A program made the translations under genes and the position numbers. A stretch of 64,000 nt of DNA from Mizuhopecten yessoensis (taxonomy: Eukaryota): NCBI RefSeq assembly GCF_002113885.1, contig NW_018405386.1, forward strand, positions 1,549,744 through 1,613,743. The letters are read 5' to 3'. Shown piece after piece: positions 2,628-55,055 of the stretch. A model generated the notes under the pieces. That model had not been told where the DNA came from. It was given only the letters and a program-made list of their open reading frames with translations, and did no database searches. How positions within the stretch are numbered: the stretch's first letter is position 1; each line of letters begins with the position of its first letter.

Positions 2628-5600
2628 ATGCTGTTAACATCAAGTATACTCCTCGTTCTGTTGAACATCATATTCTGTTCAGCTGAAATATTAGAAAACA
2701 AACGCAGTAAGTATCTTGTGGTGTATCATTACTTATTTGATCAATTTTTCTATTTCATCACTTTAACATTTTATTCTCCTCTCCATGTTTAGCATTTTTG
2801 TCTCTAATATGTTTTGACTATTTCTTTTTTTTTTATGTTTGTTCCGATTCTGAAACAAATCCTCCTCGGACACGATATTCTGATTTCCTTTACATAAATG
2901 CAGATTTATTGATGCTGTGCTTTGTGTCTTCTTTTGTGAACAGAGGCAGATGAGCTGGATTTGATCGTGTCCATAGCTTTCCACGAGAAGATCGTACGAG
3001 AGGCTCCTGCCTTGAAGGAACTGGTAGAGAAACAAGCCGTAGAATGTGAAGCCAAACTGAACCTCACGTTTAAAGCATGTGAAAGCTGCAGAGCCAGGTA
3101 AGGTTCCATACCAATTAAAATGTGAATGTGGTTACTCTCATGTTTATGTTAAAATGATATTTGGATATCTTAAAATCGTTTATTATGATATCAACATCGA
3201 ATGCTCATCCGTCAAAGAGATATGTCGGGTTGCTATGCCTATTTCCCCAAAGCTGTGTCACGCTAGTGCGCGCATCCAACCGTGCACTGTTATGACGCCT
3301 CCTCAGGTATTTTTTTTTATGCATGTAGCAATATCGGAATTCCATGTCTAAGAATAGATTATTGTAAACAGACCACATATTTGGTATTTCGGCATTATTT
3401 GTTGGTGTTTAAGCACAATTAATAAATTTCATCAAAAATAGTGTCTTACCTACAAAGCGTAGCTGTACTGTACACGTGTACAGGGATTTGTTGACATGCT
3501 TCGATAGAAGTATCAAACCCAAGAGTCCAAGGTAATTTTGAAAAGTTGAAAATATACTCTAAAGGCTCTAAAAGCCCTTTAATTTACGTTAAGCATTTAA
3601 GCTTCGCAATGAGTACGGCACCTCCTTATAAAACGGCACAATATTTATAATAAGGTAATAATTGTTTGGGTTTTTTTTGTTTTTTGTTTTGTTCAAATTG
3701 TTTGTGTGAAAACTTTCTTTTAGGTATGAAATTATACCTCAACCAAACAAGGGCGGTCTTGACCAGCTGCTTTTACAGATATTACCGACAAGTTTGGGTG
3801 GATTAGCACTAGGTGGTGTAACTGGAAAACCGTTAGGAACACTTGTTGAGAAAACCATTCCAAGTGTAGTGAAAGATGTCGGCAGTAACCTTGAAACATT
3901 CTTCAAGGGCACGATTCCAAGGGTGGGAAAGGATATTAAGAAGCAGTTAGGGAAATTCTTCACCAAAACACTCCCTGGAACAGGGAAAACTGTTGTAAGT
4001 CATCTTGAAACCTTCTTTAAGAAGACAATACCGAAAACCGGAAAAAATGTAGGAGGCCATTTAGATACATTCTTCACAGAATCTATTCCGAAAGTGGGAA
4101 AGGATGTTGGTGGCCATCTGGAAACATTTTTCAAGAAAACACTCCCAAGCACAGGAAAAGATGTCGGAAACCATCTTCATACGTTCTTTAAGAAGTCGAT
4201 GCCAAAAGCCGGAAAGAAAGTTAAACATTTCTTCACGAATGCGATCCCTGAAGCCGGAAAGGAAGTTAAACATTTCTTTAAAAATACTATTCCAGGTAAA
4301 TAAATTTACATAGGAGTCAGAGGTATTATCAGTTTTATTGGTGAAGGTTAAAAGTTGGCTTTCATGATGAATTTACCGTTTTGTCTATGAAAATGATGAA
4401 GTGAAGCACCTGAAATATTTCATGAAACCTTTTTAGACTTTCCTTAAAAAAACTTTTAAGTTTTAGATACAAGTAAGATTTTATTTGAACTTAATAGCAC
4501 TCTCTGAAATTAAGCTCTTTTTATCAATTTACCTAACCATGATGGTACTATTGATTTTTGTGTGTGTGTCTTACTTTTCACAAGAAATTTTGATTTTCAT
4601 ATTCTCAAAAAAGTAGTACTAAAAAAAGTGGACCAGACAGAAGTCTCATATTGTTGCAAAAAATGTTACAATCAAATATTGAATGGCAAACCTTACTGAA
4701 TGAAGACGGTAGTTTCCATTCTATACATATTGTATATATATGTATCATTTATGAAAAATACATCGGAAGCAAATAAAGTATATGTAGTTTTTATATTCAG
4801 AGATTTTGCATTAATAATCATAAAAGTTTAAGTTTGTTATTGCAATTATAACATCAGAAAAGAATGTGTCCAACCTTCTGTTTAGCGGTTACAACTTGCT
4901 GTGCAAGCTTGTATTTTAAATTGTATAGTGTAATTTTTGATAGGTCTGTTTAATGGGAGACGCAGGCGACAAGCATCTCAGTGTCCCGACTGTGATAAGA
5001 TAAACACTGACACTATGACGTCAAGTGATGTGACGCGTACAGGTGAGTTGATATAAGTATTTATTCCTGAGATTACTGATAACGCCCTATTGAGTCGAGT
5101 GTTCAGAGAGACAACGCCAAAAAAAAGAAAGGAAGGAAGAAAAGAATAGACAGAGGACCAAAGTATTGCAATTGGGAGAGCAGATCAAATTTCGGTTTCT
5201 TCAATATCAAATAAGCAGAACATATAAACAAAATTGTAAAAAATCCGGATAAGCAGGGGTCCGAAGTTTGGTTTATGGGTTTATTTTGTTTAAGGTTCTA
5301 TTAACAGCTAAGGTCATTTAAGGACGTGGTTCCCACGTTAGTTGCCTCATACGTACAAGAGTGGTATACTACCCGTGTACGATTTACTACTGTAAATAAC
5401 TTTAAGAATGGGATATATTTTTTAATTGCAAAATTGTTTATTGAGTGCTATTCTTAGAAACACAAAATTTAGATCAGTACTGTTCTACATGCTGTTATGT
5501 GCGAAATTAGGTTAAATTTATAATGTCAGTTAAAAACAAGAAAAGAACTATTGTTTCTGCTAGAAGTGCTCTTCTAATCAGAAATTTATCAAAGTTTGCT

Positions 5601-7883
5601 GTGTCCAAGAAGATACTGATACACAGTTATTTGCTTAAATATGTATTCTATTATTATAGTTTACTTCTATTACTAGGTCTGTGTTGCTGCTGCTGGACTA
5701 TAGGTCCCCGAAGGCACCATACAACTAGTTGTCAATTTATCGACATAATTCGTCGCAATAACATTTTAATTCTGTCAAAATTTCTTAATCATTTTACCGT
5801 AAGGATTTAGCAACAGTTCATTACGTTTTACATTTAGGTGGGGTTTTTTTTCAATCTTTAAACGTGAACATTTTGACTTCCTGCATATGTGAGATTTAGA
5901 TAACAGAAACATGGATGCATTAAAATGATATTTTTGTCTGTGTGTTATTACTGTTATGCAGCGTTTTTAATGTCTTTTATATCATTTTTGCAATGTAAAT
6001 TACTTTGATTTTTTATAAATCTGAGTCATCAGTCAAAATAGCAAAAACATGGGAATATGCTTCATTTTATTGAAATAACAGGTAATTTGTTAGCTATATA
6101 CTTCATATCTTTCATGAATATTTTAAAGTTTCTTCTATTTCCCATGAAAGCTAGTAAATCCGTTTTATATTAGAAAAAGATATTAATAACTTGTGTTATG
6201 TTGTTTTTTTGGAAGTATGCGGACAAGCTTATGTGAACAACGTCGCACAATACAGGAAGATGGCGATCATAAACCAATTAATCCACGTCGACAAAAAACC
6301 CGTGATTACCAAGGTAAGTTATGGCCCAAATGTGAATATATTATTTGAGTTTAAAATGTAAATGCTGCATGTACAATTTGTCATAAGCTGTGTATACGCT
6401 GTACAGGGGCAACATCCCAACGATAGAGTATTTTAAATATATCATATATGTGAACCACGTAATTAGCGATAAAGTTAAGTATTTGACGACAAGTCCTATG
6501 CTGTTTTTTCTTCAAACATCTTTTGACAATAATGAACGGTTGTTAAAGATTCATTAGATAATGTATCGTTAATTTAAAAAAAAAAATCTTTCAATTGTGT
6601 TTACAAAAAATATTTGTGTTTTGGTTTTATCTCATAGTGATTATTTCTTTATATCTGCACGTGTAGTGTTTGTTTTATTTTGCTTTACTTAAGTTTGAGA
6701 ACTTTTCTAAATCTTTATTAACTTTAGGATGTTTAGGGTTTGAAATTTCTTTTATGCGGTCAGACTTCTTTTTATTATTTCTTTGTGAAAAAATTTCCCA
6801 ATGAGTCTTTAGTATTTTTCATTATGCATTTTTAAAATTTGTCTTTAAATTTCGAAGAAATTACTTGCCTTTTTACAAACGCAAAGTTGTATAGTGATTG
6901 CCTCAAGTCTTTCGGATTAACGTACGATTAACAGGTGAACTCGAATAATCTATTTCAATATTACAGTTACTAAGAATATTCTCTATCAATATTTATGTTA
7001 CTATGAATATTCTCTGTATCAATATTAAAGTTACTACGAATATTCTCTGTTTCAATATCACAGTTATGACGGATATTCGCAGAATCAACAATTCATTAAT
7101 TATTAGTATTTTACTTTATATTATTAATTAATTATATTATTAAAAGGAAAACTTAAAAAGTACAATACAATTACTACGAAGACGCTTTTGTTTGTTTATC
7201 ATTAAGTCATATTTATATTCAGTTATTATGATATTTTAAGAATACCGTAGAGACTATTTCATTTTTGACGAACATTTCCTATATCTACAATGTTCAACAT
7301 AACAGGATGACGAATATGCCATATACATGTATAAGTACATCATGCGTAACGATTATTTTTTCTTTATATCAATGAACATATGCTAATACCTAAAATTATA
7401 TTTCTATCCAAGTGTCTGCTACATATTACAATATGTCTATGTGTCTGGAATTTCTACCACACGTATGCATACTGTCCTATGTATTGCAGTTAACATAAGT
7501 GTCAGCTGTGTCAGTATATGATGCATAATGATTTCTATTCTTTATATCAATGAACATATGCTAATAGCTAAAATAGAATGTCTTTCAAAGTGTCTGCTAC
7601 ATATTGCAATATGTCAAAGTGTCTGGAATTTCTACCACACGTATGTATACTGTCCTATGTATTGCAGTTGACATAAGTGTCAGTTCTATTTCAGGTGACG
7701 TTCATGAGGAAAGATGCTGTCAATAAACTGCTAGAAGGTGTAGCTTCAGCATCACCCTTCGCTGTCACTTACACGGACGGAACAACCTCAGAAATTCTCA
7801 AATCTGACAGCACTCTCGATCTTCTGAATCCTAACCAGGCTTTGGGAGAAGAACTAGCTAAAGAAATATGGGACATGATATAA
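2628..7883 (+). CDS. Paralog A: secreted, furin-site-containing protein with cationic 19-aa amphipathic repeats (396 aa, 6 coding exons, unknown family)
   Basis: join(2628..2706,2944..3097,3724..4295,4944..5042,6216..6313,7695..7883), all AG/GT-flanked, 1191 nt in frame. Signal peptide MLLTSSILLVLLNIIFCSA; exon2 ECEAKLNLTFKACESC; exon3 TFFKKTIPKTGKNVGGHLD repeats; exon4 GLFNGRRRRQASQCPDCD; exon5 VCGQ..PVITK; exon6 VTF..LGEELAKEIWDMI*. AATAAA at 8113. Confidence 0.9.
7343..7683. repeat. About 178-bp tandem duplication in the last intron of paralog A
   Basis: TCTTTATATCAATGAACATATGCTAATA at 7361 and 7539; GTGTCTGGAATTTCTACCACACG at 7441 and 7619. Confidence 0.85.
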
Positions 7884-9438: not shown

Positions 9439-12400
9439 ATGGTCATCATGTTCTTACTATTATGGGTTAGCGTCTTGCTATTGAACTGTTTTGGCTCAGC
9501 TGTGAACCACCAACAAAGTGAGTACACAAATATTGATGATCATACATTACGAGATTTCGAACAGCCTGTTGGTGAGTTATAGAGCTGTTTGAAATATAAG
9601 GTGTTCAATTATCGTGAGAAATGGTACCGATCTATGCATGTGAAAACATCTAAAAAGGTAAAGTGATATTTGTAATTAAGAAATGTCACATAAGAGATTT
9701 TGAAATGAATAAATTTACACAACAAATTAAACATTTAACGTTAAAAGCAATGACTGTTTATTGATGCTGGTATTGTAATTTTACTTAGCAAGAACAATGG
9801 TGTCATTTGCTGGATAACGACTGGATCTAAATGAAATGGTACTATATTTCATTACTGCTAATTGTGATTTGGCCTTATCCACTTTTTAACCAGTAACCCG
9901 CCCCTCCCTCCTCCCCCCCTCCTCCCCCGTGAAATTACCAGGTGAAAGCATATTGCTTAATTTCACTGAAATTTGGTTAAAAAAAAAGTTAAGTGATAGG
10001 GCCAAAAATGTACATATGTATATTGTTAGCTTATATGCATAATGACGCGTCAAACAAACTCGTTATATAGTATAAAAGACTTTAATTTTCAGCTTATACA
10101 GATATATTTATTCTTGTATTCAGCATGACGCAAAGCTGTCCAAATTTGCAGTAATAACAGACTATATATCATGTCTCACTTTGATAGTTAAACACGAAAG
10201 TTAGAGACCCCGTCAATCATCACCAGAATTTTACACTGGACTCCAACAAGGGGACAGACTTCCATAAGACTTCCGTTGGTGTAATTTATTGCAAAGTTAT
10301 CATCATAAACCTTTCTTTTCTGTGTTAATATAAGCGTGAAAAGTGAAAACCCTACCAGTTATTGAAATTATGAAATCTGTTTCTATGTCTAAAATGTAAT
10401 TTCAGGAGATAATCTTTTGCTTGATTTCTTTTAAATATTTACATTTAAAGCACAGTCATATTGGAAATTCAACACACACATAGACAAACAAAAACTACAA
10501 GAGAATACTGAAATGTCAACAAAATTGTAATTCTAATTCCAAATGGATAAAATTAGGACAAAAAATGAACAGGAAAAATAAAAATAAATGCATTGAGTCT
10601 TTTAAAAACGAACAAGGAGAATAAGACCAGGTGTTCCGGAACGATAAGCGTCCTCTAATTCATAACAACATGCAAATCTAGGTCAAATTTGAGTAAAGTC
10701 ATGTCCTCATAGCGAGAACTAGGGGTTGACACTAAGGAAACATAAACAAATTATTGTCACAAATCTTTATTTACATGTTAGTTATTTAGTGTCACTCTCC
10801 TAGTTCTCGCTTCATCAGTTTAGCTAAGTTTTTTTTGAACACCACCTTTTAAACTAAATATGCACATGAACCATGATTTCGCACTGCCCATCATCTGTCA
10901 GGTGATATTTTATGGAAAATGTAATGTAATGCTTTAATTGACGATCTCTAATTGTAAGCTATCGCTATCTGAGAAATTAGTTTGGGAATGTCTAGCACAT
11001 TTTCTCTTGACAAGTAACTATCTTTTTTGTCCTAACCCTGGTTATGTCAGGTGATTGGGACTAGTGCTCAGTGCCACCATTGTGTATGCAACTACACTGT
11101 CGTAAGAGGAAGCTGCGACAGGGGTTAACTTTGTTGCTTCCGGCATTATATACACACAGTTAAAGGTATTAAATACCATAAAGTGGTAATAAACCATGGA
11201 TACCAATACTCATTCACAAACCCTTGTCAATATAGATAATAAAAAAATATTTTCATTTCGGCTTAAAAATAAAAGATTATTTATTAGTTATTTTTGTAGT
11301 AATAAAAAATTGTTTAAATGGAACATCTGTTTTTTTTGCAACATTAATCATTTACAGATTAACAAAACTCATATTTAGATAAAAAAAAAGAAGCTTGTAT
11401 AGATCAACAGTCTTTATTTACAGATCAACAAGGTCTGCGACAAGGGGTAAACTTTGTTGCTTCCGGCATTGTATACACACAGTTAAAGGTATTAAATACC
11501 ATAAAGTGGTAATAAACCATGGATACCAATACTCATTTACAGACCCTTGTCAATATAGATAATAAAAAATATTTTCATTTCGGCTTAAAAATAAAAAAAA
11601 ATGTTTAAATGGAACATCTGTTTTTTTGCAACATTAATCATTTACAGATTAACAATACTCGTATTTAGATAAAAAAAAAAAATAAGCTTGTATAGATCAA
11701 CAGTCTTTATCTACAGATCAACAATGCTCATATATAGATTAAAATTAATCTTTTATATATCAACTGTCCTCATTAATAGATCAACAATGCTCATATAGAG
11801 ATCAGAAATAATCTTTTATAGATCAACATTTCCAATTTACAGATCAACAATACTCAAATTCAGATCAGAAATAATCTTTTATAGGTCAACAGTACTCATT
11901 AACAGATCAACAATGCTCATATTTAGATCAGAAATAATCTTTTATAGGTCAACAGTACTCATTAACAGATCAACAATGCTCATATTTAGATCAGAAATAA
12001 TATTTTATAGGTCAACAGTACTCATTACAGATAAATGCCAAGATTAACACCTAAATTATTCTGAATAAATACACTAATGATTTGACACACTCATGATATA
12101 AAAACCTACATAGAAAAGGCACATTCATAAAATAGCGAAATGTCTCATCACGAAAAGCGCTACAATTAATATACCGCTAAAACATACACGTTAACAGTAA
12201 CTATTTGCAGACAATTAATAACATATACAAACAAGAAAGATGTTTTGGTATCTGAAAATACAAATTTTGATATTTACAGAAGCGAAAGAGCTCAATGAGA
12301 TAGTGACACGAATTTACCGTGATAGGATCTTACGAGAATTCTACACTTATAAGGATCTTGTAAAACAACAAGAATTGGAATGTGAAACAAAAGTAAACGA

Positions 12401-15400
12401 GACAAAAGCTACCTGTCACACCTGTATATCGAGGTAAGACTAATGAAACAATTAAATGAAATAGTAATGTTTATTTCATGTTAAATTTTATCAAATAAAA
12501 ATGCATCAAATAACAATTAACTATCTAGAGACCTTCATTGTCAAACGTTAATGCATAACGTTCTTTTTTATGATATTTTTTTTATAACACAAAGATAGTC
12601 GTTACAACATTTTGCGACCTTTGAAATACGTCTGTTTCCTTTGTCAAGCAAAGAGTCACATGACCAATGTCTTGACTCTAACCTGCTGGAACTAACTCAT
12701 TAAGCCACAATGTGCCGAGTCAGTAACGTCAGCTGACATTTCGTCCGAATAACACCCTTGTACTGCAGACAGTCGGAGGGCCGAGTGATATGTTTATCCA
12801 TTCAGCCCCCTTATGTTATTTTGTATTATTTTACAGGTACAGTGATACATCACTACAGATTGACAATGTCACCAAGACACCAAAAACCAGCGATGTAAAC
12901 ATATCTACATTTGCTAATACCTTTCCAAACATCAATGGCGATAGTCTATCAGCAGTACGCGGTATAACCGAACCAACCATTGGTAGCGAAATACCACCCA
13001 GCAGTTCAACGAAAACGAGCAAAAACATAAACATACCGCTCAAAAGTAGTAGTAGCGATAGCTTACCAACCGTCAGTGATACTGTAATACCAACCACCAG
13101 TAGTAATAGTATACCATCTACCACTAGTGATAGTTTACCAACCACCAGTGATACTGTAATACCAACCACCAGTAGTAATAGCATACCATCTACCACTAGT
13201 GATAGTTTACCAACCGCCAGCGATACTGTAGTACCAACCACCAGTAGTAATAGCATACCATCTACCACTAGTGATAGTTTACCAACCGCCAGCGATATCG
13301 GAACACCAACTACCAGAAATGATATCTTACCAATCATCACTGAAACTGTAACGCTAACAACCACTGATAATGGCATACCAACCACCAGTAAAATAGCATC
13401 ACTAACCACAAGTATTCATAACCTACCAACAATCCCTGATATTGAAACATCAACAACAAGTAGTAATTCCATGACAACCATCAGTGATATTGTAAACCTA
13501 ACCACCAGTGATATAAATGAAAACACTAGAATTGGTAATAACATACCAACCACACATGATATAAAAACAATGCCGACCAAACAGGGTAGTTCGTTACGAA
13601 TTATAAGTAATACAACGACACCAGCCGACAGTAGCATTAAGATACCTCCCAAACACAATAGTACGTTACCAACTACAGGTAAATCAACCACCCCAGCCGA
13701 CAGTAGCATTAAGATACCTACCAAACACAGTGGTACGTTACCGACTACAGGTAAATCAACCACACCAGCCGACAGGAGCATTAAGATAACTACCAAACAC
13801 AGTGGTACGATACCAATTACAGGTAAATCAACCACACCAGCCGACAGTAGCATTAAGATACCTACCAAACACGGTAGTGCGTTACCAACTACAGGTAAAT
13901 CAACCACACCAGCCGACAGACGCATAAAGATGCCTACCAAACACAGTGGTACGTTACCAGCCATAGGTAAATCAACCACACCAGCCGACAGTAGCATAAA
14001 GATACCTACCAAACAGGGTAATATCACACCAACCAGCAGTCGTAACACATTAACAACAATCCGTGATAATAACATGATAACCATCACTGGTAATATCACA
14101 CCAACACTCACTAATGATAACAAACCAACCATCAGCGTAAATAACAGGCCGGCCATCGGAGGAAATGACATTCCAACTATAAGTGGTGATAATATACCAA
14201 CCACCATTGGCGATAACATACCATCAATTAGTGGTAATAGCCAACCGACCGTCAGGGGTGATAAACTAACCATCACCAGTGGTGATAATATACCAACCAT
14301 CAGTAGTGATAACATACCAACAATCAGTCGGGATAACATAACCGTTAGTGGTGATAACATACCAACCGTCAGTAGCGATAGAATATCAACGGTCAGTAGT
14401 GATATTATAACACCAATAATTGGTGATAACATACCAACCATTAGTGGTGATAACAAACAAACCTCCAGGGATGATAAAATACCAACAACCAATGGTGGAA
14501 ACATACTAACTACCATTGGTGATAACATACCAAGCAGCAGTGGAGATAGCATACCAACAACCAGAGGTGATACCATACTAACTACCATTGGTGATAACAT
14601 ACTAACTACCATTGGTGATAACATACCAAGCATCAGTGGAGATAGCATACCAACAACCAGAGGTGATACCATACCAACAACCAATGGTGAAAACATACTA
14701 ACTACCATTGGTGATAACAAACCAAGCATCAGTGGAGATGACATACCAACAACCAGAGGTGATACCATACTAACTACCATTGGTGATAACATACCAAGCA
14801 TCAGTGGAGATAGCATACCAACAACCAGAGGTGATACCATACTAACTACCATTGGTGATAACATACCAAGCAGAAGTGGAGATAGCATACCAACAACCAG
14901 AGGTGATACCATACCAACAACCAGTGGTGAAAACATACTAGCTACCATTGGTGATAACATACCAAGCATCAGTGGAGATAGCATACCAACAACCAGAGGT
15001 GATACCATATCAACAACCAATGGTGAAAACATACTAACTACCATTGGTGATAACAAACCAAGCATCAATGGAGATGACATACCAACAACCAGAGGTGATA
15101 CCATATTAACTACCATTGGTGATAACATACCAAGCATCAGTGGAGATAACATACCAACAACCAGAGGTGTTAACATACCAACAACCAATGGTGGAAACAT
15201 ACTAACTACCATTGGTGATAACAAACCAAGCATCAGTGGAGATGACATACCACCAACCAGTCGTGATAACATACCAACTACCTTTGGTGGTACCATACAA
15301 ACCATCGGAGGGGATAGCATACCAACCGTCAGTGGCATTGACATATCAACCATCAGTGGTAATGGCATACCAACTATCAGTGCAAATAACATACCAACCA

Positions 15401-18400
15401 TCAATGATACAAAAATACCACCCATAAGCGGTGATAACAAGCCAACAGGTAGTGAAAATAAGATACAAACCGTCAGTGGTGATAACATACCAACAATCAG
15501 TGGTAATATCATACCGACCATCAGTGGTAATAGCCTACCGACCATCAGTGGTAATATCATACCGACCATCAGTGGTAATAGCCTACCGACCATCAGTGGT
15601 AATAACAAACACACCATTAGTGATAATAACATACCGACCTACAGTGATAATAACATACACACCTACAGTGATAATAACATACCAACAGTCAAGGATATTA
15701 AAATGTCTAAAATCCCTAGTAATAACGTTAAAACAATCAGTGCTCATAACATTCCAAAAATGAGGGAAAACACGCTTCAAAGAATTATTAACAGGCCAAT
15801 CATGAGTAGTAACAACAGACCAGTTCACAATATCAATATTATATTACCTTTTAGCCGTAATAACCTTTCAGATAGACAAACCAACGATAAGAACAATGTA
15901 CCGATTTCTCCTGGTAGTCGGGAACTAGCCATGAGTGGAAATGAACTGGCAGAAGAGAATATAGTCAAGATAGAAAGCAGCAGTTTAATCAAGGTATCAA
16001 CTGTTGTTAATCTTATTGAAAATACAGCAAAGAACAGTGGCCTAGTAATTCTAAATACCAGTGGTTTTAACCGAAAAGATATTAATGATACTACACAACT
16101 AATTAACACGGTTACTGAACATACAAATACCAGTGGTTTTAACCGAAAAGATATTAATGATACTACACAACTAATTAACACGGTTACTGAACATACAAAT
16201 ACCAGTGGTTTTAACCGAAAAGATATTAATGATACTACACAACTAATTAACACGGTTACTGAACATACAAATACCAGTGGTTTTAACCGAAAAGATATTA
16301 ATGATACTACACAACTAATTAACACGGTTACTGAACATACAAATACCAGTGGTTTTAACCGAAAAGATATTAATGATACTACACAACTAATTAACACGGT
16401 TACTGAACATACAAATACCAGTGGTTTTAACCGAAAAGATATTAATGATACTACACAACTAATTAACACGGTTACTGAACATACAAATACCAGTGATGTT
16501 AACATAACAACTAGTGAGGAAATTGACCAATTGCTTACAGAGATAGAATCTCAAAGTCTGCTGGGTACTGGTATTTCTCTTACAAATGTAGTGCAGTCGC
16601 CGCTTACAAAACTGGTTGGGAAAACCGTTCCAAATATTGTTAGTAAAATCGTTCCAACCCGTGATGTTAACATAACAACTAGTGACGAAATTGACAAATT
16701 GCTTACAGAGATAGAATCTCAAAATCTGCTGGGTACTGGTATTGCTCTTACAAATGTAGTGCAGTCGCCGCTTACAGAACTGGTTGGGAAAACCGTTCCA
16801 AAGATTGTTAGTAAAGTCGTTCCAAACATTGTTAGTAAAGTCGTTCCAAATATTTTTAGTAAAATAGATAGTAACATTGAACCGTTGTTCAAAGAGACGC
16901 TTCCAAAGGTTGGAAAGGCGATTGGGAAAAATGTGGAAACCTTCTTTAGCAGTACACTTCCAAAGGTCCGTGTTGGAGAACCTCTTGAAAAAGTAGTTAC
17001 TAAAACACTCCCTGAGGCTTCAAAAGGATTCGGAAAACATCTTGATACGTTCGTTTCCAAGTTACTCCCAGATACTGCAAAGTTAATCGGCAGCAATGTT
17101 AAATCTTTCCTTGATACGAAGACTTTCCGTTTACCTAAGAATGTTGGAAGTTATCTTGAAACATTTTTCACTGAGACTATCCCTAAGGCTGGTAGAAGTG
17201 TTGGAGGCCATTTGGAGACATTTATCACGAAGACGATTCCAGGTAATCTCCTTGCTTTTTTTCTAACCTCTTATAATTAATGATAATGAGTCGTTTATAT
17301 TCCATATTGTTATCACTTTCTTTCCTGATTGATTAATTTTGGAAACATATGAAATGGCAGAAAAACAACATCGAAATGAAATTAAAGTGCACGGAAAACA
17401 TAGTCTGGTCGTTGGAAGTATCGCTATTTTTTGCATGTAAGCAAACAAAAGGTAAAAGCGCAATTTTGGACAATTTAATTTGGCAAATATTTAAGATAGC
17501 ACTCCTCCTTGTCAAAAATCAAACTTCTTACGACAAATGGAAGCGAGAAAAGCCTACAAAATCACTATTTTGCCATTATAAATATTTTCACTCGCTATAC
17601 TCGTTATTAGGAAAACGCTTCGTGTGGCTCATACACATTGGTAAGTAAAAGAACCAGTGGTGAAAAAGATAATCCATAATTAATATCTATAGTAATTTTA
17701 TTCAGCATACATGCGGTGCGCATAAATATCATGTTTGGCAAAAACAAATTATGATGGTGATATTGTTAGTATTCACCTAAATGCTGTCGAAGTTTGACAT
17801 TGAATTGTTTCAATGTTTTGGATTTAGGATGAACACTCAATAATCAAAGGTTAAGATAGTATCATAGTTGTACCTTTTCGAATAATGACAAAATAGTGAC
17901 TGGGATTCTACTCTATGCTACTTCAGCGAACTGCAAATTGCATTTTGCAATTGTATTAAAAATTGGAAAAAGACATTTTTTCTTATGTTTTCTTATATTA
18001 TCAACAATTATGTATTTTTCAAAATACACAGTTTTGGCATGTACCGAATGGATATATTCACACGCTACTACGAGTACAAGCCTAATGTTGTTGCCGAATA
18101 TTTACCATATGTGGGTGGTTATTGTATTTTTCCTGTATTATTGTGTTATTATTTACGTTTTGATAAATGTTTAGGGATTGACCCGAATAAAAAGACATAT
18201 GATTTCGTACGCTTCGCTGAATTATTTCTTTTCTTATAAACATGGGTATAGCTATTACTCAGAAGATCTTTAGTTTCCTTTCAAGATGCGTCTTGCTGAC
18301 TACTTTCATTTATGATCATTTATTATTAGAAAATGCAATTAATTAGCTATTTAATGTTTTGTATATTGTTCCTTTTGTCTAGTCAGAAAAGTATGTCTTG

Positions 18401-21388
18401 ACTAATAGTTAAAAATCATGTTGATTTGATGTTTGACATTGACCTGGTGTAGATCCCCGGACCCGCCAATGTTGGGGAGCCTGAAGTTGGTTCCTAGTTC
18501 CTAGTTCCTAATAACTAGACCCTAGTTCCGTTTAAGGTAAACGGAACTAGGAACCAGACCCTAGTTCCGTTTAACATAAACGGAACTGGGAACCAGACCC
18601 TAGTTCCGTTTAACATGTGCAAGTTAATATAAAACATGTACACATAATCAAGATATATGATATGCAAGGAAGCACCGTTTACAATTCACCGCGTAGAGCT
18701 ATGACATTTTATGTGTTTGTAGGTGTGTTTGGCCGCAGACGAAGACGACAGATTTCGCAGTGTATATCATGTGACGAAATCAACAACATGACTGTCACGG
18801 AACGCAAACATGCTGGTGGGTTTTACAGAAAGCTTTACTTGTATATCAGCTAACAGCTTGTTAGGAGTTTATCTAATATTATTTTAAAACACCAGTGTTA
18901 GAAGCATCCTTTCAGTATTTTTCAATTACTTTTAAGACTAATTTTATTATGAACAGTTAAAAGTAAATCAATCTTTTATTTGTACGGAAAGCTTACAATG
19001 CTGAATGGGAAAGCTACTAACCGCTACATCCTTATATTAACATAAGTTGTCGATGTCAATCTAGTTACACAGTAACCACAAAGAATGAGACCATTGTCTT
19101 CAATATAAGTAAGTTAAACTGCAAGATAAATGTCATTACCTGTGGTTTTTAGTATAGATCATTGAAGTATGAGAAATTTCATCCCTATTTTCTTGTAATA
19201 AACATCGTATATCATATTTTATTTTCATTTTAGTGTGTTGTATTTAATCTCATTATGTATTCTTATTAAGCAAACAGATTACTACATCATCGTTTTTTAA
19301 ATGTTTTACAATCGTTCTGTTATAAGTAATAAGTATGTTAGTTTTAGTCATTATTCAATTGATTCAACAAAACATGTCATTTCCGAGGAAAAGTGTGTTA
19401 TAGAGTTTAATTATTCACCACATTGGCCACATATAACATTACCACGCCATAACGATATTGTCAAGTTCAAAACTGCCTTTCCTCAGCGAGCGATTAATCA
19501 TTTTCGTTTCTGTGGATACTTCGCCACTTTTCTATTGTAAATAGGCATTTGAAAGTACTTTTTCTGTTCTATGTTAAATACAAAGAAAATTATAGGTTGA
19601 AGGCATTTTAGGGAGTCAAAACATAATGAACTACTTGCCAAGATCATAATGCTGCAGGAAAAATATCGAAAATATATTTTCGCCGGTAGCACAATGGATA
19701 CGTTCCGTTCATTTTAATCAAGAGGTCCGCGGATCGATTCCCTGTAGTGGATACGTGTTTTGTAAGAAAGGTTATTTATTTTTCACATATTTCTTTCGTA
19801 AATATCCCTTTGCTTTACAATAAATAAACAAGCAATTCGAAATAAGAATATTTCCAAACAAATTGTGTTTTTTCCTCGTAAGAGAAACGAATCCGACCAC
19901 CATGATTTCTAACCTTCACATGCTTGCTTAACGTTTCCAAAAACGTTACATATTTTACAGACTCCTTTTATATTCATCTATATTTCAGTGTGTGGAGTTG
20001 ATCCGGCCAAACAGTTTGAAAAGATGGTAAAACTAGGCAATCAGATCTTTCTAAATAGAAAACCCATCATAACAGAAGTAAGTAAAGCATAATCATGAAT
20101 TTATATTAATTTATCAAAATTCATACTAATGTATTGGTAAAAAAATCTCTAATACTAATTATAAGATAAGAAGACTTACTGTCAGAGGTTCATAACCAAA
20201 TGTAATCAAATAATAAATTATTTATATATCAAAAACCGGTTTTATGAAATATTTCATAGATACATTTCATAATAGAGATCAGCCAATGTGTTCCCTTCAT
20301 TAATGGCAAAGAAGCTTTGTGCCTTTCATTAGATTTAAACATATGTAACAAAACAAATTATAATTCACGAAGTAAGTTTTCGGTTCCTTTAAGCGTTAAT
20401 TTTGTAATACGTTTGAACGGATATAAAAAGTGAGTAATCTCATTAGTTAAGATACGTTTCAAAACGACACTCATATTGGCTATAAGCTAACCAGCCACGC
20501 GTGGATTTCTTTGTGTAGTACAGGATATCCTATATTCAAATTTCATGGTTGTCAGCTCCTACTTTTACTAGACGTATATAGTCAATATATACATCTGAAA
20601 TAATACCTAAATAAGATTTATCATTTGGGAATATATGATGTCAAAGTTTTACTTTATATACAAATAATGTACAATGACCGACTGGTCCCTTTGTTAAGCC
20701 AACAAATTGACCAGTCGGTCTTGAAACGTTTAATACGTACATTGTTTGTGTATATAGTAAACAATTGACAATACATTTAAAAATATTCCGTTAATTCAAT
20801 GGGCCACATAAATAACAGGTTATGGCGGTTCGACTGATGCAGCTAAGAAAACCAAGATTTTATTAATACAAGAAACGATACTTTCTGCTTTAAAGTCATT
20901 AATGTTTGTTCCACAAACAAGAGACTAACTAACCTTATTGTTTATATATCACTATCAATCATTACAATTCATAATGTTTTCTAAGAATTATTCAAATGCG
21001 TTAAGCATTTCAATGTAACCGCTTGATCAAGTGCCTGAAAAAATACATGGCAAATGTGTAAATGCTAGGTTTCATATTTGTAAACATGCATAACAAAAGT
21101 ATATTTCCATGAAAATGTGAGATGACGTCAATATATGAGAATATACGTAACAAATAATCACTTCTATTTAACCGCTAGGTGACGTACAATAGAGCGGACG
21201 TGACACGCTTAATTAGGAAAGGGGTTGTCACAGTACCGTCCTTTATGGTAACATACAACGTTGGAGGTTTCACCAAAACGCAACAGATAAATAGGACTCT
21301 GGACCTGCTGAGTTCCAACCAGGATATAGGAGAAGACCTTGCCACGGAAATATGGAATTTATTCTTCACCACAAACATGCCTATCTGA
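9439..21388 (+). CDS. Paralog B: same family, with a giant Thr/Ser/Pro/Asp-rich mucin-like expansion in exon 3 (about 1676 aa)
   Basis: join(9439..9517,12280..12433,12837..17242,18723..18815,19989..20077,21179..21388), 5031 nt in frame. Exon 1 (79 nt) and exon 2 (154 nt) match paralog A in size. Signal MVIMFLLLWVSVLLLNCFGSA; CETKVNETKATCHTC; GVFGRRRRRQISQCISCD; VCG..PIITE; ..IGEDLATEIWNLFF. AATAAA at 21506. Confidence 0.88.
11112..12030. repeat. About 320-bp direct duplication followed by an about 60-bp degenerate tandem repeat in intron 1 of paralog B
   Basis: CTGCGACA..AACTTTGTTGCTTCCGGCATT..GGATACCAATACTC at about 11112 and 11434; then repeated CAGATCAACAATGCTCATATTTAGATCAGAAATAATC. Confidence 0.85.
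16054..16485 (+). repeat. Six perfect 72-nt coding repeats (NTSGFNRKDINDTTQLINTVTEHT) in paralog B exon 3
   Basis: AATACCAGTGGTTTTAACCG.. at 16054, 16126 and onward with period 72. Confidence 0.95.
18518..18616. repeat. 39-bp tandem repeat of a palindromic unit (2.5 copies)
   Basis: GACCCTAGTTCCGTTTA-agg-TAAACGGAACTAGGAACCA; units start at 18518, 18557 and 18596. Confidence 0.9.
19682..19755 (+). mobile_element. Possible tRNA-derived SINE head or tRNA-like remnant
   Basis: Pol III A-box-like TAGCACAATGG (19687-19697) and B-box-like GGATCGATTCC (19731-19741); no convincing cloverleaf. Confidence 0.4.
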
Positions 21389-27725: not shown

Positions 27726-30700
27726 ATGATCCTGTCAGCTTGTTTGTGCCTGGTCCTGCTCAACTTGGGGTTGACATCCGCAGTCGTCCATGATAGTGAT
27801 GATAGTAAGTTTTTTTTTTATATATTTGATTATGCTACTTATCAAATGAAATTATCACAACATTAAAATTTAACCAGTTATTTTGTAGCTGAAGAAATAT
27901 GTAAAAGTCAGGAGTCGTTAGACAAGAATTCTTATTCAATACTTTTTTAATGTTCTGATTGCAAGACTTGCATTTAAATGTATTATGATGTCAAAAATAA
28001 CGTACTATCATTGCATAAAATAGATACCCGATTTATTTATTTATTTAAATGGCGATCCTCCATTTGCCTGATAATTCCTGTTTCAATGTTCTCTCGACAT
28101 CGGTTTCGGAGCCATTAAAATACAACCGCAATATTACACCATTTGAAATCAGCAGGGACTGTAATTAATATGCGGGCAATCTAAAAATGGAAACGAAAAA
28201 ACAGTTACTGAATTCTATATCTTATTTAAATATACGAACAAACATTCGTCAAATAAATATTATCTGCCTGGAATGTTCGGTATGTGTTTCAAACGGGGAC
28301 TGTGATCACAGTATTCAAAGAGTGACATTTCGAACATACTTTCCCTATACCAACATATCTTGCTGTTTAATTCAAGTATCTATAATTAACGTATAATTAA
28401 TTATCAAAAATGTTTCCTCCCTTTAATTGATTTTTCAACTTGTTGATATTAATATATTTATGATATCTTTTTACTTATAAATGCATGTTGATAATAGAAG
28501 TTGTTAATCATTGTTCGTGTACTTTTCAGTTTTAGTTGTACGGTTAATAACTTTTATTTTCTATTCTTTTTAACTATTGAGTTACAAGGCAACGAAAATT
28601 GTTTTTAGCTGACTGTGTTCATTGATTTAAGGATGTCTTCAGGCTTCGGCAGAAAAAGTCCTAGTGAAAACTATGATTTTGTAGTGAGCAAAGTAAAACG
28701 TGTACTAAGCAAACATGTAAATATATGCGTATTTCTTCGCCACGTTGTCGTGTGAAACAGCTGGATAAATTGCAGCTACAGAACACTTATCGCTCCGGAG
28801 TCGATGCTCAGAAGATAACATATTTCTTCGTTTCATTGATGTTGAGCAAGCCCATCTAGTTTTGAAAACAAGCAAACTGTATAATAAGCCTAAGTTTGTA
28901 TACGGTTACACATAACATAAATTATGTAAAAATGCATCGACTCACAAGGACAAAAAAGTTTGACAAGTTTGTATACGGTTACAAATTTAGTTATATTTAA
29001 CCCTTTCATCCCTATGTAACTTCAGTAAACTATACCATGCATTGATTTGGTTGAGTCGATTATGGTCTACAGTGGTGAAAGGGTTAACAATGTATCAAAC
29101 ACAATATGAAATGGTTGAGTTTTCTCCGTCTGCATAACACAGGAGTGATTTGTTATTTTTCTGTCATACTTGCTACTGTGAAACAAAAGTTGCAATCGTT
29201 AACCCTATGTACCGCGCAATTATATATGCGCGACAAAACTGATGACGAATCATGGTAGCGTTGCATAAAATGATGACGCGATGGTGACGTTTTCAGAATA
29301 ACAGTGCGTGTGCGCTGTCTTTCCCTTGGTAGGCTATAAAATGGTTTATCTTTTCCAGACAACAGCGGGAATGCGCCTGTAAAGTGTTGAAGAATCAGTT
29401 TTCTTATCTGCATGACATAAATGGGGTATACATTGTGTGTTCTTATTAGTTTGGTAAATGCCCATTACTCAATTTAAATCATAACTTGTTTCATACTTGT
29501 GTCAAACGAAAACATTTCACATGCTTGGTATACTCAATTTGTTTTCTTTTTCTTTGTACAGAGGCCACAGAAATCAATTACTATGTAGTAATAAATTTTC
29601 AGCGGAGATACAATGACGATTTTCCTGCTCTGGAGAAAAAACTTGAGGACGCATCACGACAATGCGAACTGAAAATCAACACAACGATCGATACCTGTTT
29701 GGCCTGTATTAAAAGGTATCTATCCACTAATAAAGGGAACAACGGACATTTTTAATCCATTTCCTAGGTACATAATATTTTGTATAAATATGCTAATGTG
29801 TTGCGATAGTTTAAATACTTGCAGTGGGTTTGGTGTATAAGAGCATAAAGTTTTCCTTTCTTATTATGTTGTGTTGCCTTTGAACTATGATTCCATCTTT
29901 GTACTCTGTGGTATATTCAGGCGTATTATGTATCAACATTTCTTATTTATATTCTTACAGAAACCAAAATTCTGGCCATTCACCAGGAAGTGTCGGATTT
30001 GATCAAGTTATTTTAGGTATTATCCCAGCCCCCTTCCGTACTGGGTTGGACAAGTTTGGTAAAGGATTGAATTTCGCAAAGAAAATCCCAAATTTTATTA
30101 CAGGCACCATTCCAAAGACAGCCGAAAACGTCGGAAAAGAGGTCGGTAAATTTGTCACTGGTACGATTCCGAACACTGCCAAAAATATTGGCAAGGAGTT
30201 TGGTACCTTCTTCACCGGCACATTACCTGGAGTTACTAAAAATGTAGGAAAGGAATTAGGCACATTCTTCACCGGCACGATACCGAAAGTAGGCAAAACA
30301 ATCGGCAATGGCTTCAAAAGTTTTGGTAACTCTTTGAAAGGTAATTATCCAATTATATATTCATAAAAATATAGTAAATTTATAGTTATATTTAAAAGAG
30401 TGCAACGAAGAATTAGTATCTTAACAAGTTAAAAAATAATATTGGTCAGAAATAGAGAAAGTGTAACTCAATTCCCAGAACACAATTACACCCAACATAA
30501 ATTCAATAGAAATATATTATTGATACATTTAATACAATAAACAAATACTACTGTACGGGTTATACATAGTATTGAGCTAATCTGTTAGTTTTTGTATGTA
30601 TACATCAGACATATATCACCATCTTTAATATCTAGTAGTGAAATGTAGCTACTTACATAGACTATTAAGCTGTCACGTGTAGGTGATTAAGTTCATATGC

Positions 30701-31004
30701 AAATAGTTGAGCTTTCATATGAAGCTGTTCAGAAGACGAACGTAACACACACACACAGGTATAAAATGCTATTCGAAAATTATGTCAGTATATGTCCATA
30801 TCAATGCATGCATGTGTCATAGAAATATTCATACACATGTGTATATATAATTATGTACATCTGACAGTTTGCACAGTGTATTTATTACTGTTTCTTAACT
30901 GCTCGAAATTATGCGTGCATAATGATACATCCGATTCAATGTATGTAAGTCTGTCTCAATGTATACATGTATGTATGTTCTGTCTGTCTGTCTGTGTGTC
31001 TGGT

Positions 31005-31039
<35 letters not shown>

Positions 31040-33832
31040 GCATGTCTGTATGTCTGCCTGTCGGGGTAGTTGTCTGTCTGTCTGTCTGTGTGTCTGTCTC
31101 TGTCTGTCTGTCTGTCTCATGTATGTGTGTATGAGTATATATGTAGATGTATTTGTATGTGTATTATGTTTTTTGTTTATACTAGACGTGCTATGTTTAT
31201 CCTTGCTTGTAATATTATGTTGTATATGGAATTTGTTGGGGTGTGAAAGAAGTATGTTTTGTGTTCTTGTCCTGTACTCTGTTTACAAATATTTTATTTT
31301 CCCATTGCCCTTCCTATTTATTTAGTTATTGTTTGACTGATGGATGTTGAATGAGAACCCTCCTGTGTGAGGACACCATATTGTTCAGGGGCTTACTCCA
31401 GGGCTGCCCAACCCTGGCATCCCCTATCAAAATATTTATATATGTATATATATCTGCTTGGAAGCAGTATATGTATATACATATTTATGAAAAAAAAATG
31501 GCTGGGGGAATAAAATATTTGAACCTAAAAATTTAAAACAAAAACAAAAAAAAACACACACAGGTGATTGCACCTTCAAAATTCAGTAATACACACAGAA
31601 TGCCAAAATGAATGACACTGCACCATACATCTGTTTCATCCTTCCATGATTCATTGGTGATGCTAGAGGGCTAGACTGGTCTAGACTACTGTATATTCAT
31701 AATTAACATTTAAATGCCATATCGAGGTGTTATATATAAGGAGTAACTGTCATATGAAGCTTTGTGTGTATTATATATAACTGGCATGTGCTGTTGATAC
31801 AATTTAGGAGTCATATATAACCTATTTACTCTTTCATCCTTGAAATTTCATAATGAACTATTCCAACGCTTGAACTGGAAGAGGTCAAATGCATCTTCAG
31901 GGGTGATATATACTTGAATTCATTAACCATACTCACTGGGTTTTTTTTGTTTTGTTTTGCTATTTATAAATTGTATGGAATTGAGCTAATTTTCTACAAA
32001 TGTTCACGTATCTGCAGATTTGTTCGGACGCAGAAGGAGAAGGGCAGCATCGGTTTGTCCTTCCTGCGACAAAATTGACAGCGACAAGTTAACTGCAGAG
32101 GAGATCCGGAGGGCTGGTTAGTATTTCTGATAACATCAATACCACTTACAAATACGTAGCTTCTCTTTGTCAATGACCCTACAGATAAAGCACAATAAGT
32201 GATACTTACATAATATATTACATTCTGTAGTTGCTAAAATGATAGCATGCAATTTGTTACGAATATATGAAAACATAATTCTAAAATTCATTTGTGAAAA
32301 CCAAATGATTTTGTTATTTTGATGCGAGGTTAAGTTTTGGTGAAGAATATATATCATATAACTTAAGTACGTATTTCGTTTAAAGAAGAGTTCCATAATT
32401 CAATGAAAACAAGGAAAATATCGTAAACAATATAAGTTCCTATTGTCTATCTAAGTAACACCATGTCCAAAGTAAAAATAGCATTCAATGATGTTTGTTT
32501 ACCCTTCAAAAACAGTGTGCGGACAAGAATTATTCAACATCTTTGAAGAATACGTCGATGCATCAAACGTCTTCCAGTGGCTGGCAGATGAAAACGCTAT
32601 CGTTACCAAGGTAAATCCATAATCAGAATTATAATGCAAATTCAAAAGACGTGCGTTCTTTCATTAAAAGTGAACGGAGATCGATCGTTTTAAGTTCATT
32701 CTATTATATATTTTTATTTGATAATATATATAATAATATATTTGTTATTAATATTCATACTCGCATTATCAGAATAACTTGCAGCTTCTCTTGATATTGT
32801 CGTTTTATTAAGTCCCCAAAACGAATTTGCTGCGTTTCATCTTATGATTATTATTCTGCATTTTCCTTATATTTTTCCCGCAAAATAGCGTCCAGAGATT
32901 TTTTTTCAGAAACTACTATCTTGATACAAATGAAATTTTAGATAAGCATTCGTAGACATATGAAAATATGCGCAACACGTTCCTTTTTTTCCGATCGTCA
33001 TCAAACATGGCCGTCGTGGTCTATAAATGATTGACAAAGTAATGGGTGTACGCCAAGGTGATGCCAACTGTCCTTCTCTTTGTCTGAATTTGCTACAACT
33101 TAACTTGTAAGGGTATAACAGCAATGTAAATTCTTTGCAATGCGTCATTTGTATTTATGTAAATGTCCTCGTTTCAATTAGAACTAGTTACAATTAATAA
33201 ACGGAATGGGACTTTGTTTTAAAAAAAAAAAAATGTAGCTGTTGCTATCATGACTTAATACTATTCCCCTATATCTGTTTTAAGCGTGTTAGTTTCAATG
33301 TTTTTTTTTTACATTTTCGTTGTGTGTAAAATTTATGACCATAGTTTTCTATTTTAACATTGGGTATATATGTTACAAAATTATGATTTGTTACACAGGG
33401 AAAAACCAAACGAATTGTTTATTATGTGACTTAATTAATGAAAACCGGTTTCTATAAAATAATCTAAATCAATAAAATATATTTTTAAAACTTAAAATAA
33501 TCATTATAATAATAATAAAAAAAAACTGTTTGCTCTCAAATATAACGTTATACTATTAATATAATAAAACGCATTTGAATTATTATCATTGAATTATGTT
33601 TTTTTTTTTACAGGTGTCGTTCAATACAGATGATACAACTAGTAAACCTCTACAGAAAATTTTTACTGTGAAGCCGTTCACTGTCACCTACAGTATTGGA
33701 GCTGGTGCTGCTTCAAATGAGTACACAGAAACCAACGCAATACTGGACATCAACGACTACACCAATGCTGCATTTGGCGATGCCCTTGCTAACAAAATCT
33801 GGAAGGAATACGTTCCTGGAGCTGCAGCGTAA
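27726..33832 (+). CDS. Paralog C: same family (341 aa)
   Basis: join(27726..27804,29562..29715,29961..30340,32018..32116,32516..32610,33614..33832), 1026 nt in frame. Signal MILSACLCLVLLNLGLTSA; CELKINTTIDTCLAC; four TFFTGTIP-type repeats; DLFGRRRRRAASVCPSCD; VCGQ..AIVTK; ..FGDALANKIWKEYVPGAAA*. TATATAA at 27661, AATAAA at 33953. Confidence 0.92.
30960..31130. repeat. (TCTG)n microsatellite in intron 3 of paralog C
   Basis: Directly visible. Confidence 0.9.
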
Positions 33833-36755: not shown

Positions 36756-37462
36756 GATAATGTAAATTCATTAGTTTACACAATTACAGATAAACTTTTA
36801 TTTTGCTCGCAGCATAGAACATGCTTTTGTGATAAGCAAAATAAACATCTTCTCGAAAAAAAGATCTACCGCTGTTATTTCGCAGAATTGAATTTAGCAG
36901 TGTTGCATCCGTTTATGATTTGAGGTTTTTGATATTGCACTACATCGATAGCAACTTTCTATTTCATAACAGTTTTCACATTAATGCACGTGACATTTCA
37001 AAATTAACAGATAGGTTCAGCTTGCAAATATAACGTACAGAATCATCTGAAAAAGTTAGCTACTGCACAGTAACTCGATAGTTTTTCTTCGTTGGCGGTT
37101 AAAAAAATAGCCATCGGAAACTTTTCATAAAACATATCAATTTTCAAGATAAATTCTAAGCCTGGATGAAATACATTAAATTCTGATAGAAACAAAAACA
37201 GCAGTGAAACCTCGAATAAACCTGATTGTTGACTCGTATACTGGGCAGGAGTAATAAATGATAGTTTCCGATTCCATTATTGATTGGTTTGCAGATTTCT
37301 GCATCAAATGAAATATATAAACCTTAGATAGATACTGATAAAATCCGTGCCATTATGTCACGAAGAAGTTGTCAATGAATTCTTAATTAAAATATACCGG
37401 CGCAGAATTAAATGTTCCGGAACGGTAGGTATATTCTCACCAAATTACCAACTTCGAATATG

Positions 37463-55000: not shown

Positions 55001-55055
55001 CAGATGTCAGTAAAAACCTGATCAGAAACAAGCAGGAATACTTGTCCATGTTCAT
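49010..55055 (-). CDS. Paralog E: inverted sister of paralog C (339 aa)
   Basis: complement join(55055..54977,51681..51528,51268..50892,50532..50434,50196..50099,49222..49010), 1020 nt in frame. MNMDKYSCLFLIRFLLTSA; CKTQINKTIHTCLAC; TFFTETIP-type repeats; GLFGLRRRRATSGCPSCD; VCGD..IIVTQ; VSFRTEDT..FGHFLAEKIWDEYVFEY*. Confidence 0.88.
52920..54400. repeat. 33-35-bp minisatellite in intron 1 of paralog E
   Basis: CTAACCAACTTTGAGTTCTAATTTAGTCCTTGTGT units. Confidence 0.95.

Follow-up and report, generated by a model that had tools for sequence, protein, structure and literature searches.

Clusterin (CLU, apolipoprotein J; PDB 7ZET, 7ZEU; Pfam PF01093) is a glycoprotein with five disulfides, C102–C313, C113–C305, C116–C302, C121–C295 and C129–C285, as listed in the accessible part of PMC10488069. 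Furin cleavage of clusterin releases hydrophobic tails, rich in Phe, on which its holdase activity, its uptake and the formation of lipoproteins depend, and the same source describes these tails as disordered, rich in Phe, His, Arg, Pro and Ser and poor in Lys (PMC12527946). Here, we describe gene A, which lies in a 64,000-nucleotide stretch of genomic DNA from the scallop Mizuhopecten yessoensis (the window; contig NW_018405386.1, positions 1,549,744 to 1,613,743). On balance, gene A appears to encode a secreted glycoprotein on a shortened clusterin-like scaffold, in which a Pro-punctuated 19/15-residue repeat would be the lipid- or hydrophobe-binding tail. The original prediction for this DNA, made from the letters alone, took the repeat for a membrane- or lipid-binding element; it seems to have missed the main point, namely that a clusterin-like scaffold, cleaved and disulfide-linked, would carry the repeat as its tail.

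Gene A is LOC110448639, and its six exons, all on the forward strand, encode an uncharacterised, predicted secreted protein of 396 residues. Exon 1 (2628..2706) encodes a putative signal peptide, called by eye from a hydrophobic N-terminus that recurs in all five tandem paralogs (A–E), and is followed by a phase-1 intron. Exon 2 (2944..3097) holds the predicted long helix of the N chain and the first cysteine cluster (C61-x10-C72-x2-C75), together with Asn66, which is conserved in the family and forms an N-glycosylation sequon in A, and a phase-2 intron follows C75. The whole of exon 3 (3724..4295) constitutes a variable amphipathic insert of 198 residues, which carries the repeat and lies between the two cysteine clusters, and the next intron splits codon 269, 13 residues ahead of the second cluster (C282-x2-C285-x17-C303). 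Exon 4 (4944..5042) contains C282 and C285 and, at 4955..4969, a predicted furin-type convertase site, in which Gly273, a possible donor of a C-terminal amide, precedes Arg274–Arg277. A phase-1 intron splits codon 302 directly ahead of the last cysteine, C303, which lies in exon 5 (6216..6313) with the C-chain helix and the start of the first beta strand. After K334, 62 residues from the protein end, a phase-0 intron leads to exon 6 (7695..7883), with the beta sheet and C-terminal helix of a domain resembling an alpha/beta roll and the stop codon. The secondary structure given for exons 2, 5 and 6 is transferred from the model of a relative, P0092. The window is animal genomic DNA, and the repeat lies within a single open frame (3710–4303). 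An artefact was ruled out by this open frame, by canonical splice sites and by the spliced product, which is identical letter for letter to the database protein P0001 and has three orthologs. A five-base gap (2069–2073) lies upstream of the gene.

Like clusterin, gene A combines a signal peptide with mirrored cysteine clusters of the form C-x10-C-x2-C(-x4-C) and a predicted furin-type cut between them, which is expected to free a hydrophobic, Phe-rich tail at the end of the N chain. The cysteine gaps of clusterin are 10,2,4,7 and 9,6,2,7 (positions as given in the available part of PMC10488069), and gene A corresponds to the outer three pairs. Instead of the five disulfides of clusterin, three are predicted in A and four in several relatives, and five would be possible in one, P0132, whose ten cysteines are spaced by 10,2,4,6 and 10,6,2,11, with two extra cysteines in the insert. 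The 10,2,4 gaps recur in six other relatives, and the relatives otherwise hold six to eight cysteines. The gene structure may point in the same direction. The exon boundaries of CLU are bracketed at 270–279, 293–317 and 388–393 of 449 residues by the accessible variant tables of PMC3296573 (numbering minus 52). Three gene A introns lie in or beside these brackets, before the second cluster, around the last cysteine and near the end, where the bracket is 56–61 residues from the terminus, as compared with 62 in A. If the exact CLU introns are those of phase 1 at 277 and at 312 and of phase 0 after 388, they would agree with the introns of A; exact CLU splice notation was not found in open main texts.

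The predicted fold extends the comparison. The AlphaFold model of the gene A product, built with four sequences, has a pLDDT of 38 and was not used for fold searches. P0092, which has the shortest insert, yielded a model from 21 sequences with a pLDDT of 83.8 and a pTM of 0.73, in which a helix (24–78), a low-confidence insert, three short helices, a helix (145–170), strands and a C-terminal helix follow one another. Clusterin is described with the same order of elements in the accessible sections of PMC12527946, and the shared features, as modeled, are antiparallel long helices and a C-terminal sheet and helix. With the P0092 model as query, Foldseek placed human clusterin 7zeu_D first among 350,542 chains (E 0.073, TM 0.19) and clusterin again at ranks 5 and 7. 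VIA-align placed human clusterin 7zet_A first among 48,161 (Z 7.5, rmsd 15.1 Å, 172 aligned residues) with an end-to-end alignment of model residues 21–234 on chain residues 25–442; the runner-up reached Z 6.2, and the next matches cover the hairpin only. A second structure look returned human clusterin at ranks 1 and 2 of 963. Across the searches, the alignments to clusterin show 11–13% identity and an rmsd of 15–17 Å. These scores alone are not significant, and the ranking derives its weight from the prior prediction based on cysteine spacing, from the agreement of two programs and from the full-length coverage. The coiled-coil arms of the bivalve scaffold are about 40 residues shorter than those of clusterin, with 41 residues before the first cysteine against 79 and 93 after the last against 136. 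Such shortening of both arms by a similar amount fits what paired coiled-coil shortening needs, and the poor rmsd would be what shorter arms give.

Several observations weigh against a relationship to clusterin. The bivalve scaffold has no detectable sequence similarity to it. Clusterin is absent among the listed Pfam matches of ten members at E up to 10 and among the best 25 of 55 families for the profile, it does not occur among the PDB matches of the full profiles (for one of them, the best 60 of 225) or of single members, and a profile of the C chain only gave four PDB matches with E of 0.4–1 (E up to 10), none of which is clusterin. The Foldseek E of 0.073 is within background, as an unrelated viral library without a match gave a best E of 0.084, and a Z of 7.5 with an rmsd of 15 Å is in the range that VIA-align calls common for helical models. 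Moreover, the fold is carried over to A from P0092 at 23% identity, A's own model having a pLDDT of only 38. Gene A contains six conserved cysteines and one sequon, as compared with ten and six in clusterin. Its cleavage site is 8 residues before the second cluster, instead of about 58 in clusterin, and the cut thus adjoins that cluster and leaves no equivalent of the alpha-tail or helix 7. The short, disordered, Lys-poor tails of clusterin differ from the long, Lys-rich tail of A, which is repetitive, predicted to be helical and probably amidated. To our knowledge, CLU has no counterpart of A's phase-2 intron after C75, and no expression or activity record was found for these genes. Because of the missing sequence match, the six cysteines, the single sequon and the position of the cut, we call A clusterin-like and not a clusterin member. 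Could the scaffold then represent a separate bivalve family that arrived by convergence at a disulfide-clamped helical hairpin with a central convertase site? The lack of a sequence-level link and the middling structure scores, with their high rmsd and low identity, would fit such an origin, but clusterin ranked first in two programs with end-to-end coverage, the idea predated the fold search, and the ten-cysteine spacing of P0132 and the intron brackets agree with common descent. We therefore regard an unrelated scaffold as unlikely and consider the bivalve family probably a remote homolog of clusterin.

What would be the function of the centrally located repeat on a clusterin-like scaffold? 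Because the repeat lies between the cysteine clusters and ends at Gly-RRRR, it should become a tail, probably amidated, that is tethered to a two-chain scaffold. We propose that a furin-type convertase would cut at RRRR (274–277) and that the resulting N chain (approximately 20–273) and C chain (278–396) would be held together by three antiparallel disulfides, C61–C303, C72–C285 and C75–C282, which are predicted by analogy with C102–C313, C113–C305 and C116–C302 of clusterin. The chains would also be joined by a short antiparallel coiled coil with a small beta-sheet domain as its cap. The repeat would be left as a free tail, anchored at one end and probably C-amidated, and each 18-residue stretch would form a five-turn amphipathic helix, hinged at Pro, upon a lipid surface or a hydrophobic client. 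In place of clusterin's hydrophobic beta-chain tail, the tail of A would act as a multivalent arm that binds lipid or hydrophobes. With its cationic polar face, an A-type tail would be biased to anionic surfaces, such as microbial membranes, and the neutral or acidic tails of the paralogs would serve other surfaces. From its sequence, we infer that the A tail binds lipid, membranes or clients.

The repeat array (3860..4291, forward strand) consists of six 19-mers (3860–4201) and two 15-mers (4202–4291) in a Pro-first register, with the motif FFxxT(I/L)P. The repeat as first described, with two 15-mers after the 19-mers, is real: all five 19-mers quoted in the original prediction are found in one open frame, starting at 3896, 3953, 4010, 4067 and 4124, followed by 15-mers at 4181 and 4226 and a final partial unit at 4271. 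One more 19-mer has to be counted, given that the Pro-to-Pro spacing is 19 residues six times (P124–P238) and then 15 twice. At lags 19 and 38, self-identity reaches 0.44 and 0.46, as compared with 0.02–0.17 at other lags from 5 to 44 and 0.08 at both apolipoprotein periods, 11 and 22. In the hydrophobicity spectrum, the peak lies at 95 degrees per residue and has an amplitude of 0.48, as compared with a maximum of 0.25 in 300 shuffles. Since 19/5 corresponds to 94.7 degrees and 15/4 to 96 degrees, the 15-mers keep the hydrophobic face, as had been claimed. The hydrophobic moment, which had been suggested as a check, averages 0.47 over the six inter-Pro 18-mers, against 0.22 (maximum 0.38) in 2000 shuffles, and is thus not low. 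Moment and periodicity together support an amphipathic, Pro-punctuated element that plausibly binds lipid or membranes.

The composition of residues 124–268 (145 residues) includes 26 Lys, the commonest residue, 16 Phe and 7 His, with a net charge of +16; the repeat is Lys-rich as described, but "strongly" His-rich is an overstatement. His occupies one fixed position in 14 of the 24 units of four scallop orthologs, and 14 of 15 A-type His residues lie at the boundary of the polar and non-polar faces. The suggested pH tuning by His is possible for the A type only, as B, C and E hold one or two His in the region and D none. In the A type, the centre of the polar face takes up 52–60% of 86 Lys/Arg and 12% of 33 Asp/Glu, a layout that would suit anionic surfaces. 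Compared with one another, the six units show identities of 0.71, 0.77 and 0.37 for codon positions 1, 2 and 3, and where they share a residue, 83 of 160 codons are different. The low third-position identity and the differing synonymous codons indicate that the array is old and kept at the protein level, and the Pecten, Argopecten and Ylistrum orthologs retain the array of six 19-mers, with the same-numbered unit as the best match in 30 of 36 comparisons. Tandem Repeats Finder detects only a 45-bp pair in gene A and not the 57-bp unit, as is expected of old repeats. The gene A repeat is an old one, kept by purifying selection.

A profile of A, its orthologs and the paralog exons matched 139 of 1.84 billion representatives, comprising 19 scaffold carriers and 120 repeat-only proteins. 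A separate profile search, in which 8000 candidates were scored, added two Mytilus proteins; word-based homolog searches gave four scallop orthologs and nothing further. Judged from the alignments, the scaffold defines an unannotated bivalve family (scallops and Mytilus) with seemingly interchangeable amphipathic inserts. All 20 aligned members share six cysteines (including C61, C72 and C75), Asn66 and Gly304 without exception. The insert is about 33 to 198 residues long (1475 in B), with charges between −14 and +38. Ahead of the cleavage site, all relatives examined have an amphipathic stretch, with a moment of 0.29–0.65 for the last 18 residues (25 rows). In these 25 rows, which include near relatives and are not independent, a dibasic or polybasic site always precedes the second cysteine cluster, with R-x-K/R-R in 16, and Gly stands before the basic site in 22 (20 by script, with two mis-picked sites corrected by eye). 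A Gly ahead of a basic site is the usual amidation signal. The relatives hold one to four sequons. No Pfam match above the curated cut-off was obtained for A, its orthologs or the paralog exons, and a PDB sequence search with A returned only two ferritin rows (E 0.58). The ESM Atlas gave no usable feature match for A or P0132, and its structure matches for A rest on a model with a pLDDT of 0.34.

The motif has a single place in the family tree. In a scaffold-only tree of 24 rows, which has a midpoint root only and leaves out the partial or mis-modelled P0007, P0010, P0079 and P0144, the ten rows with FFxxT(I/L)P form one side of a branch (100/98). The mussel proteins and paralog D carry a plain amphipathic insert with a period of 98–100 degrees, which suggests that the 19-mer is a derived state of a scallop subfamily. 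Of 15 non-carriers, 13 have a window at the tail end that is among the top 8 for the unit profile. Two database models appear to be incorrect: P0010 represents a truncated paralog C that reads through into intron 3, and in P0144 (Mytilus) a PHD-finger and a retroelement-like segment replace the cleavage-site exon.

The tandem, Pro-punctuated amphipathic helices of A resemble those of exchangeable apolipoproteins (ApoA-I, A-IV and E; apolipophorin-III), but they have a period of 19/15 instead of 11/22, and the tail is tethered to a disulfide scaffold. In class A apolipoprotein helices, basic residues are located at the edges and acidic residues are central; this layout is reversed in A, with basic residues central and acidic ones at the edges. 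The apolipoprotein analogy is thus weaker than was claimed. Family profiles match ApoA-IV in the PDB (E 1.9e-7 and 2.1e-9) and apolipophorin-III in the insert region only. These searches are swamped by the amphipathic insert, and the ApoA-IV matches are generic, as the same profiles also score designed helical bundles and tape-measure proteins. The Pfam Apolipoprotein family gave no match above the cut-off for A and 21 bits for P0132, against a cut-off of 90.

The comparison with piscidin, pleurocidin and clavanin was upheld for composition and for the Gly-polybasic amidation signal and weakened by the lack of KR or RR between units. Like these peptides, the A type, and not D or E, has amphipathic helices of about 20 residues with Phe-Phe, Lys, Gly and His, followed by a Gly-basic signal for amidation. 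Unlike them, the units of A have no flanking processing sites (five KK are the only dibasic pairs in its insert), the precursor is 396 residues long with flanking cysteine clusters, and many tails of the family are neutral or acidic. A polyprotein of released peptides was ruled out by the missing internal convertase sites in A's insert. Gene A is neither a free-standing apolipoprotein nor the precursor of a peptide antibiotic. The main rival to a lipid-binding tail, an antimicrobial effector, is nevertheless compatible with the clusterin-like fold and assigns the protein another principal task: microbial membranes would be permeabilised by the cationic, amidated tail, either intact or as peptides cut out by proteases other than convertases, and the scaffold would be a carrier or pro-domain. 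The charge of +16, the seven His in 145 residues, the Phe-Phe pairs and the Lys residues central on the polar face are consistent with such an effector, as are the charges of +25 and +28 in orthologs and +38 in one relative, the Gly-polybasic signal in 22 of 25 rows and, possibly, the occurrence of paralogs in tandem whose inserts change quickly, as is seen in defence genes. However, A's insert lacks the dibasic sites KR and RR, insert charge in the family extends down to −14 (−23 in B) and is +1 in E and +10 in the Ylistrum ortholog, the units are individually conserved between genera, unlike hypervariable peptide arrays, and the sole Pfam antimicrobial match, for paralog C, is weak (E 0.017, below the cut-off). 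We consider an antimicrobial main function possible but doubtful. The most antimicrobial-peptide-like tails of the family are those of P0040 (net +38) and P0111 (16% His), both of which end in Phe-Gly before a dibasic site.

Instead of lipid binding, the repeat might serve a structural or adhesive role in mucus, byssus or shell matrix by self-associating as a right-handed coiled coil or bundle. Both 19/5 and 15/4 are right-handed coiled-coil periodicities, the hydrophobic stripe stays in register past all prolines at 95 degrees, Gly at unit positions 4 and 8 forms a packing stripe, and paralog B contains a mucin-like stretch. The same motif and periods occur in phage tape-measure proteins, which the accessible part of PMC5099701 describes as extended helices with repeats of 11 or 18 residues; a 19-residue period is absent from the repeat periods given there. 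However, a long soluble bundle is disfavoured by the Pro at 19-residue intervals and by the dense Lys face; a stretch of 18 residues with its Pro also makes exactly five canonical turns and a hinge, and the inserts of relatives have periods of 98–100 degrees. A purely structural role is accordingly rather improbable, and a tail that binds lipid or hydrophobes remains our preferred reading.

The 19-mer period, which had been called unusual, is not unique to these genes and is common in tape-measure proteins (Pfam TMP_3, PhageMin_Tail), which share the motif FFxxT(I/L/V)P at spacings of 19, 38, 30 and 15 residues. At least three FFxx(T/S)(I/L/V)P motifs occur in 98 of the 120 repeat-only matches, and the spacings in the phage-like matches are 19 (412 times), 38 (75), 30 (40) and 15 (29). 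Examples of such tape-measure-like proteins include P0009, P0011, P0012, P0031 and P0036. A tape-measure family is among the best five PHROGs families for 36 of 40 tested repeat-only matches, a lenient test in that P0143 from the mussel likewise scores, by way of its insert, and a Pfam tape-measure domain lies above the cut-off outside the repeat in 9 of 25. Unlike the scallop proteins, the phage proteins have acidic, Trp-rich units and lack scaffold features. Identity outside the motif is 8% between scallop and phage units, as compared with 29% between scallop paralog types, and this low identity and the differing charge make convergence on a helix-hinge motif likelier than transfer. If exon 3 had acquired the 19-mer horizontally from a tape-measure gene of a phage, this would explain the many motif-bearing matches, mostly with 19-residue spacing, and the single origin of the motif in the family tree. 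However, the repeat-only matches were selected by that very motif, tblastn found no match in 50,697 annotated phage records, and the ancestral tail end was already unit-like, judging from 13 of the 15 non-carriers, a resemblance that speaks for an internal duplication. P0001 itself matched none of the PHROGs families at E 1e-5. We regard transfer as very improbable; the 19/15-mer is probably shared with tape-measure proteins by convergence.

The five paralogs, whose gene models rest on tblastn and splice-site inspection, have the same plan of six coding exons with intron phases 1,2,1,1,0, and each retains the six conserved cysteines. Paralog B (9439..21388, forward strand) encodes 1694 residues, and its exon 3 (12837–17242, 4.4 kb) contains a very long mucin-like stretch of about 1350 residues in Thr/Ser/Asn/Pro-rich repeats of 8 and 24 residues (12837–16880), ahead of degenerate 19-mers at about 16882–17242. 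The mucin-like part, with 72-bp arrays and a 168-bp duplication, lies inside the same scaffold, and the insert charge of −23 includes it. Of the roughly seven 19-mers that had been reported in B, six or seven degenerate units can be recognized, with three exact spacings only. Paralog C (27726..33832, forward strand) encodes 341 residues with 19-mers at about 30112–30340, and paralog E (49010..55055, reverse strand) encodes 339 residues with near-neutral 19-mers at about 51120–50892 and no Gly directly before the Arg run. The four 19-mers ascribed to C and to E are present as four Pro-anchored units each, with three exact 19-residue spacings. Paralog D (40481..45939, reverse strand), whose exon 1 (45939–45849) was located via an ortholog, has a Gly/Ala/Ser-rich amphipathic insert with a 100-degree periodicity and no 19-mer. 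Two convertase-type basic sites in its exon 4 (43794–43922, reverse strand) would release a short linker peptide, and a double site of this kind also occurs in P0013, P0040, P0067 and P0092. An N at 40486 is within the last sense codon of D. Elsewhere in the window, short-chain dehydrogenase exons at 58234–62909 (reverse strand; best PDB match peroxisomal 2,4-dienoyl-CoA reductase, E 4e-11) provide a useful synteny marker for the paralog cluster. Long minisatellites lie at 34185–36758 (34-bp units), 41361–43560 (29 bp), 52921–54396 (35 bp) and 61100–61679 (17 bp), two of them in introns of D and E.

Searches of open main texts found no paper on the gene identifiers or the motif, and supplements or proteome and transcriptome lists may hold the genes; likewise, no paper on an invertebrate clusterin was found in open main texts, and AlphaFold DB or InterPro may already make the link. 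The accessible part of a 2025 paper calls clusterin a conserved vertebrate glycoprotein that is phylogenetically younger than the small heat-shock proteins (PMC12527946). Remote bivalve homologs, if true, would push the origin of clusterin back to early bilaterians. As a broader proposal that may equally well prove right or wrong, the bivalve family would be the protostome sister of clusterin, with a scaffold inherited from the bilaterian ancestor that serves as a display platform for C-amidated amphipathic tails, neutral, His-rich, cationic or mucin-extended, encoded by one variable exon. In scallop A, the tail would form a tethered belt, made up of helices of 18 residues plus Pro, to wrap lipid or to attack anionic membranes, and tape-measure proteins of phages would have reached the helix-hinge motif independently. 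This shared 19/15-mer is worth a description of its own. If the proposal is true, the family would provide a natural series in which a constant scaffold carries tails that vary in charge and in length (about 35–200 residues, 1475 with the mucin-like part), and the roles of scaffold and tail would become directly testable by tail swaps. For shellfish biology, this unannotated and expanded secreted family would be a candidate for an extracellular chaperone, a carrier of lipids or a protein of defence.

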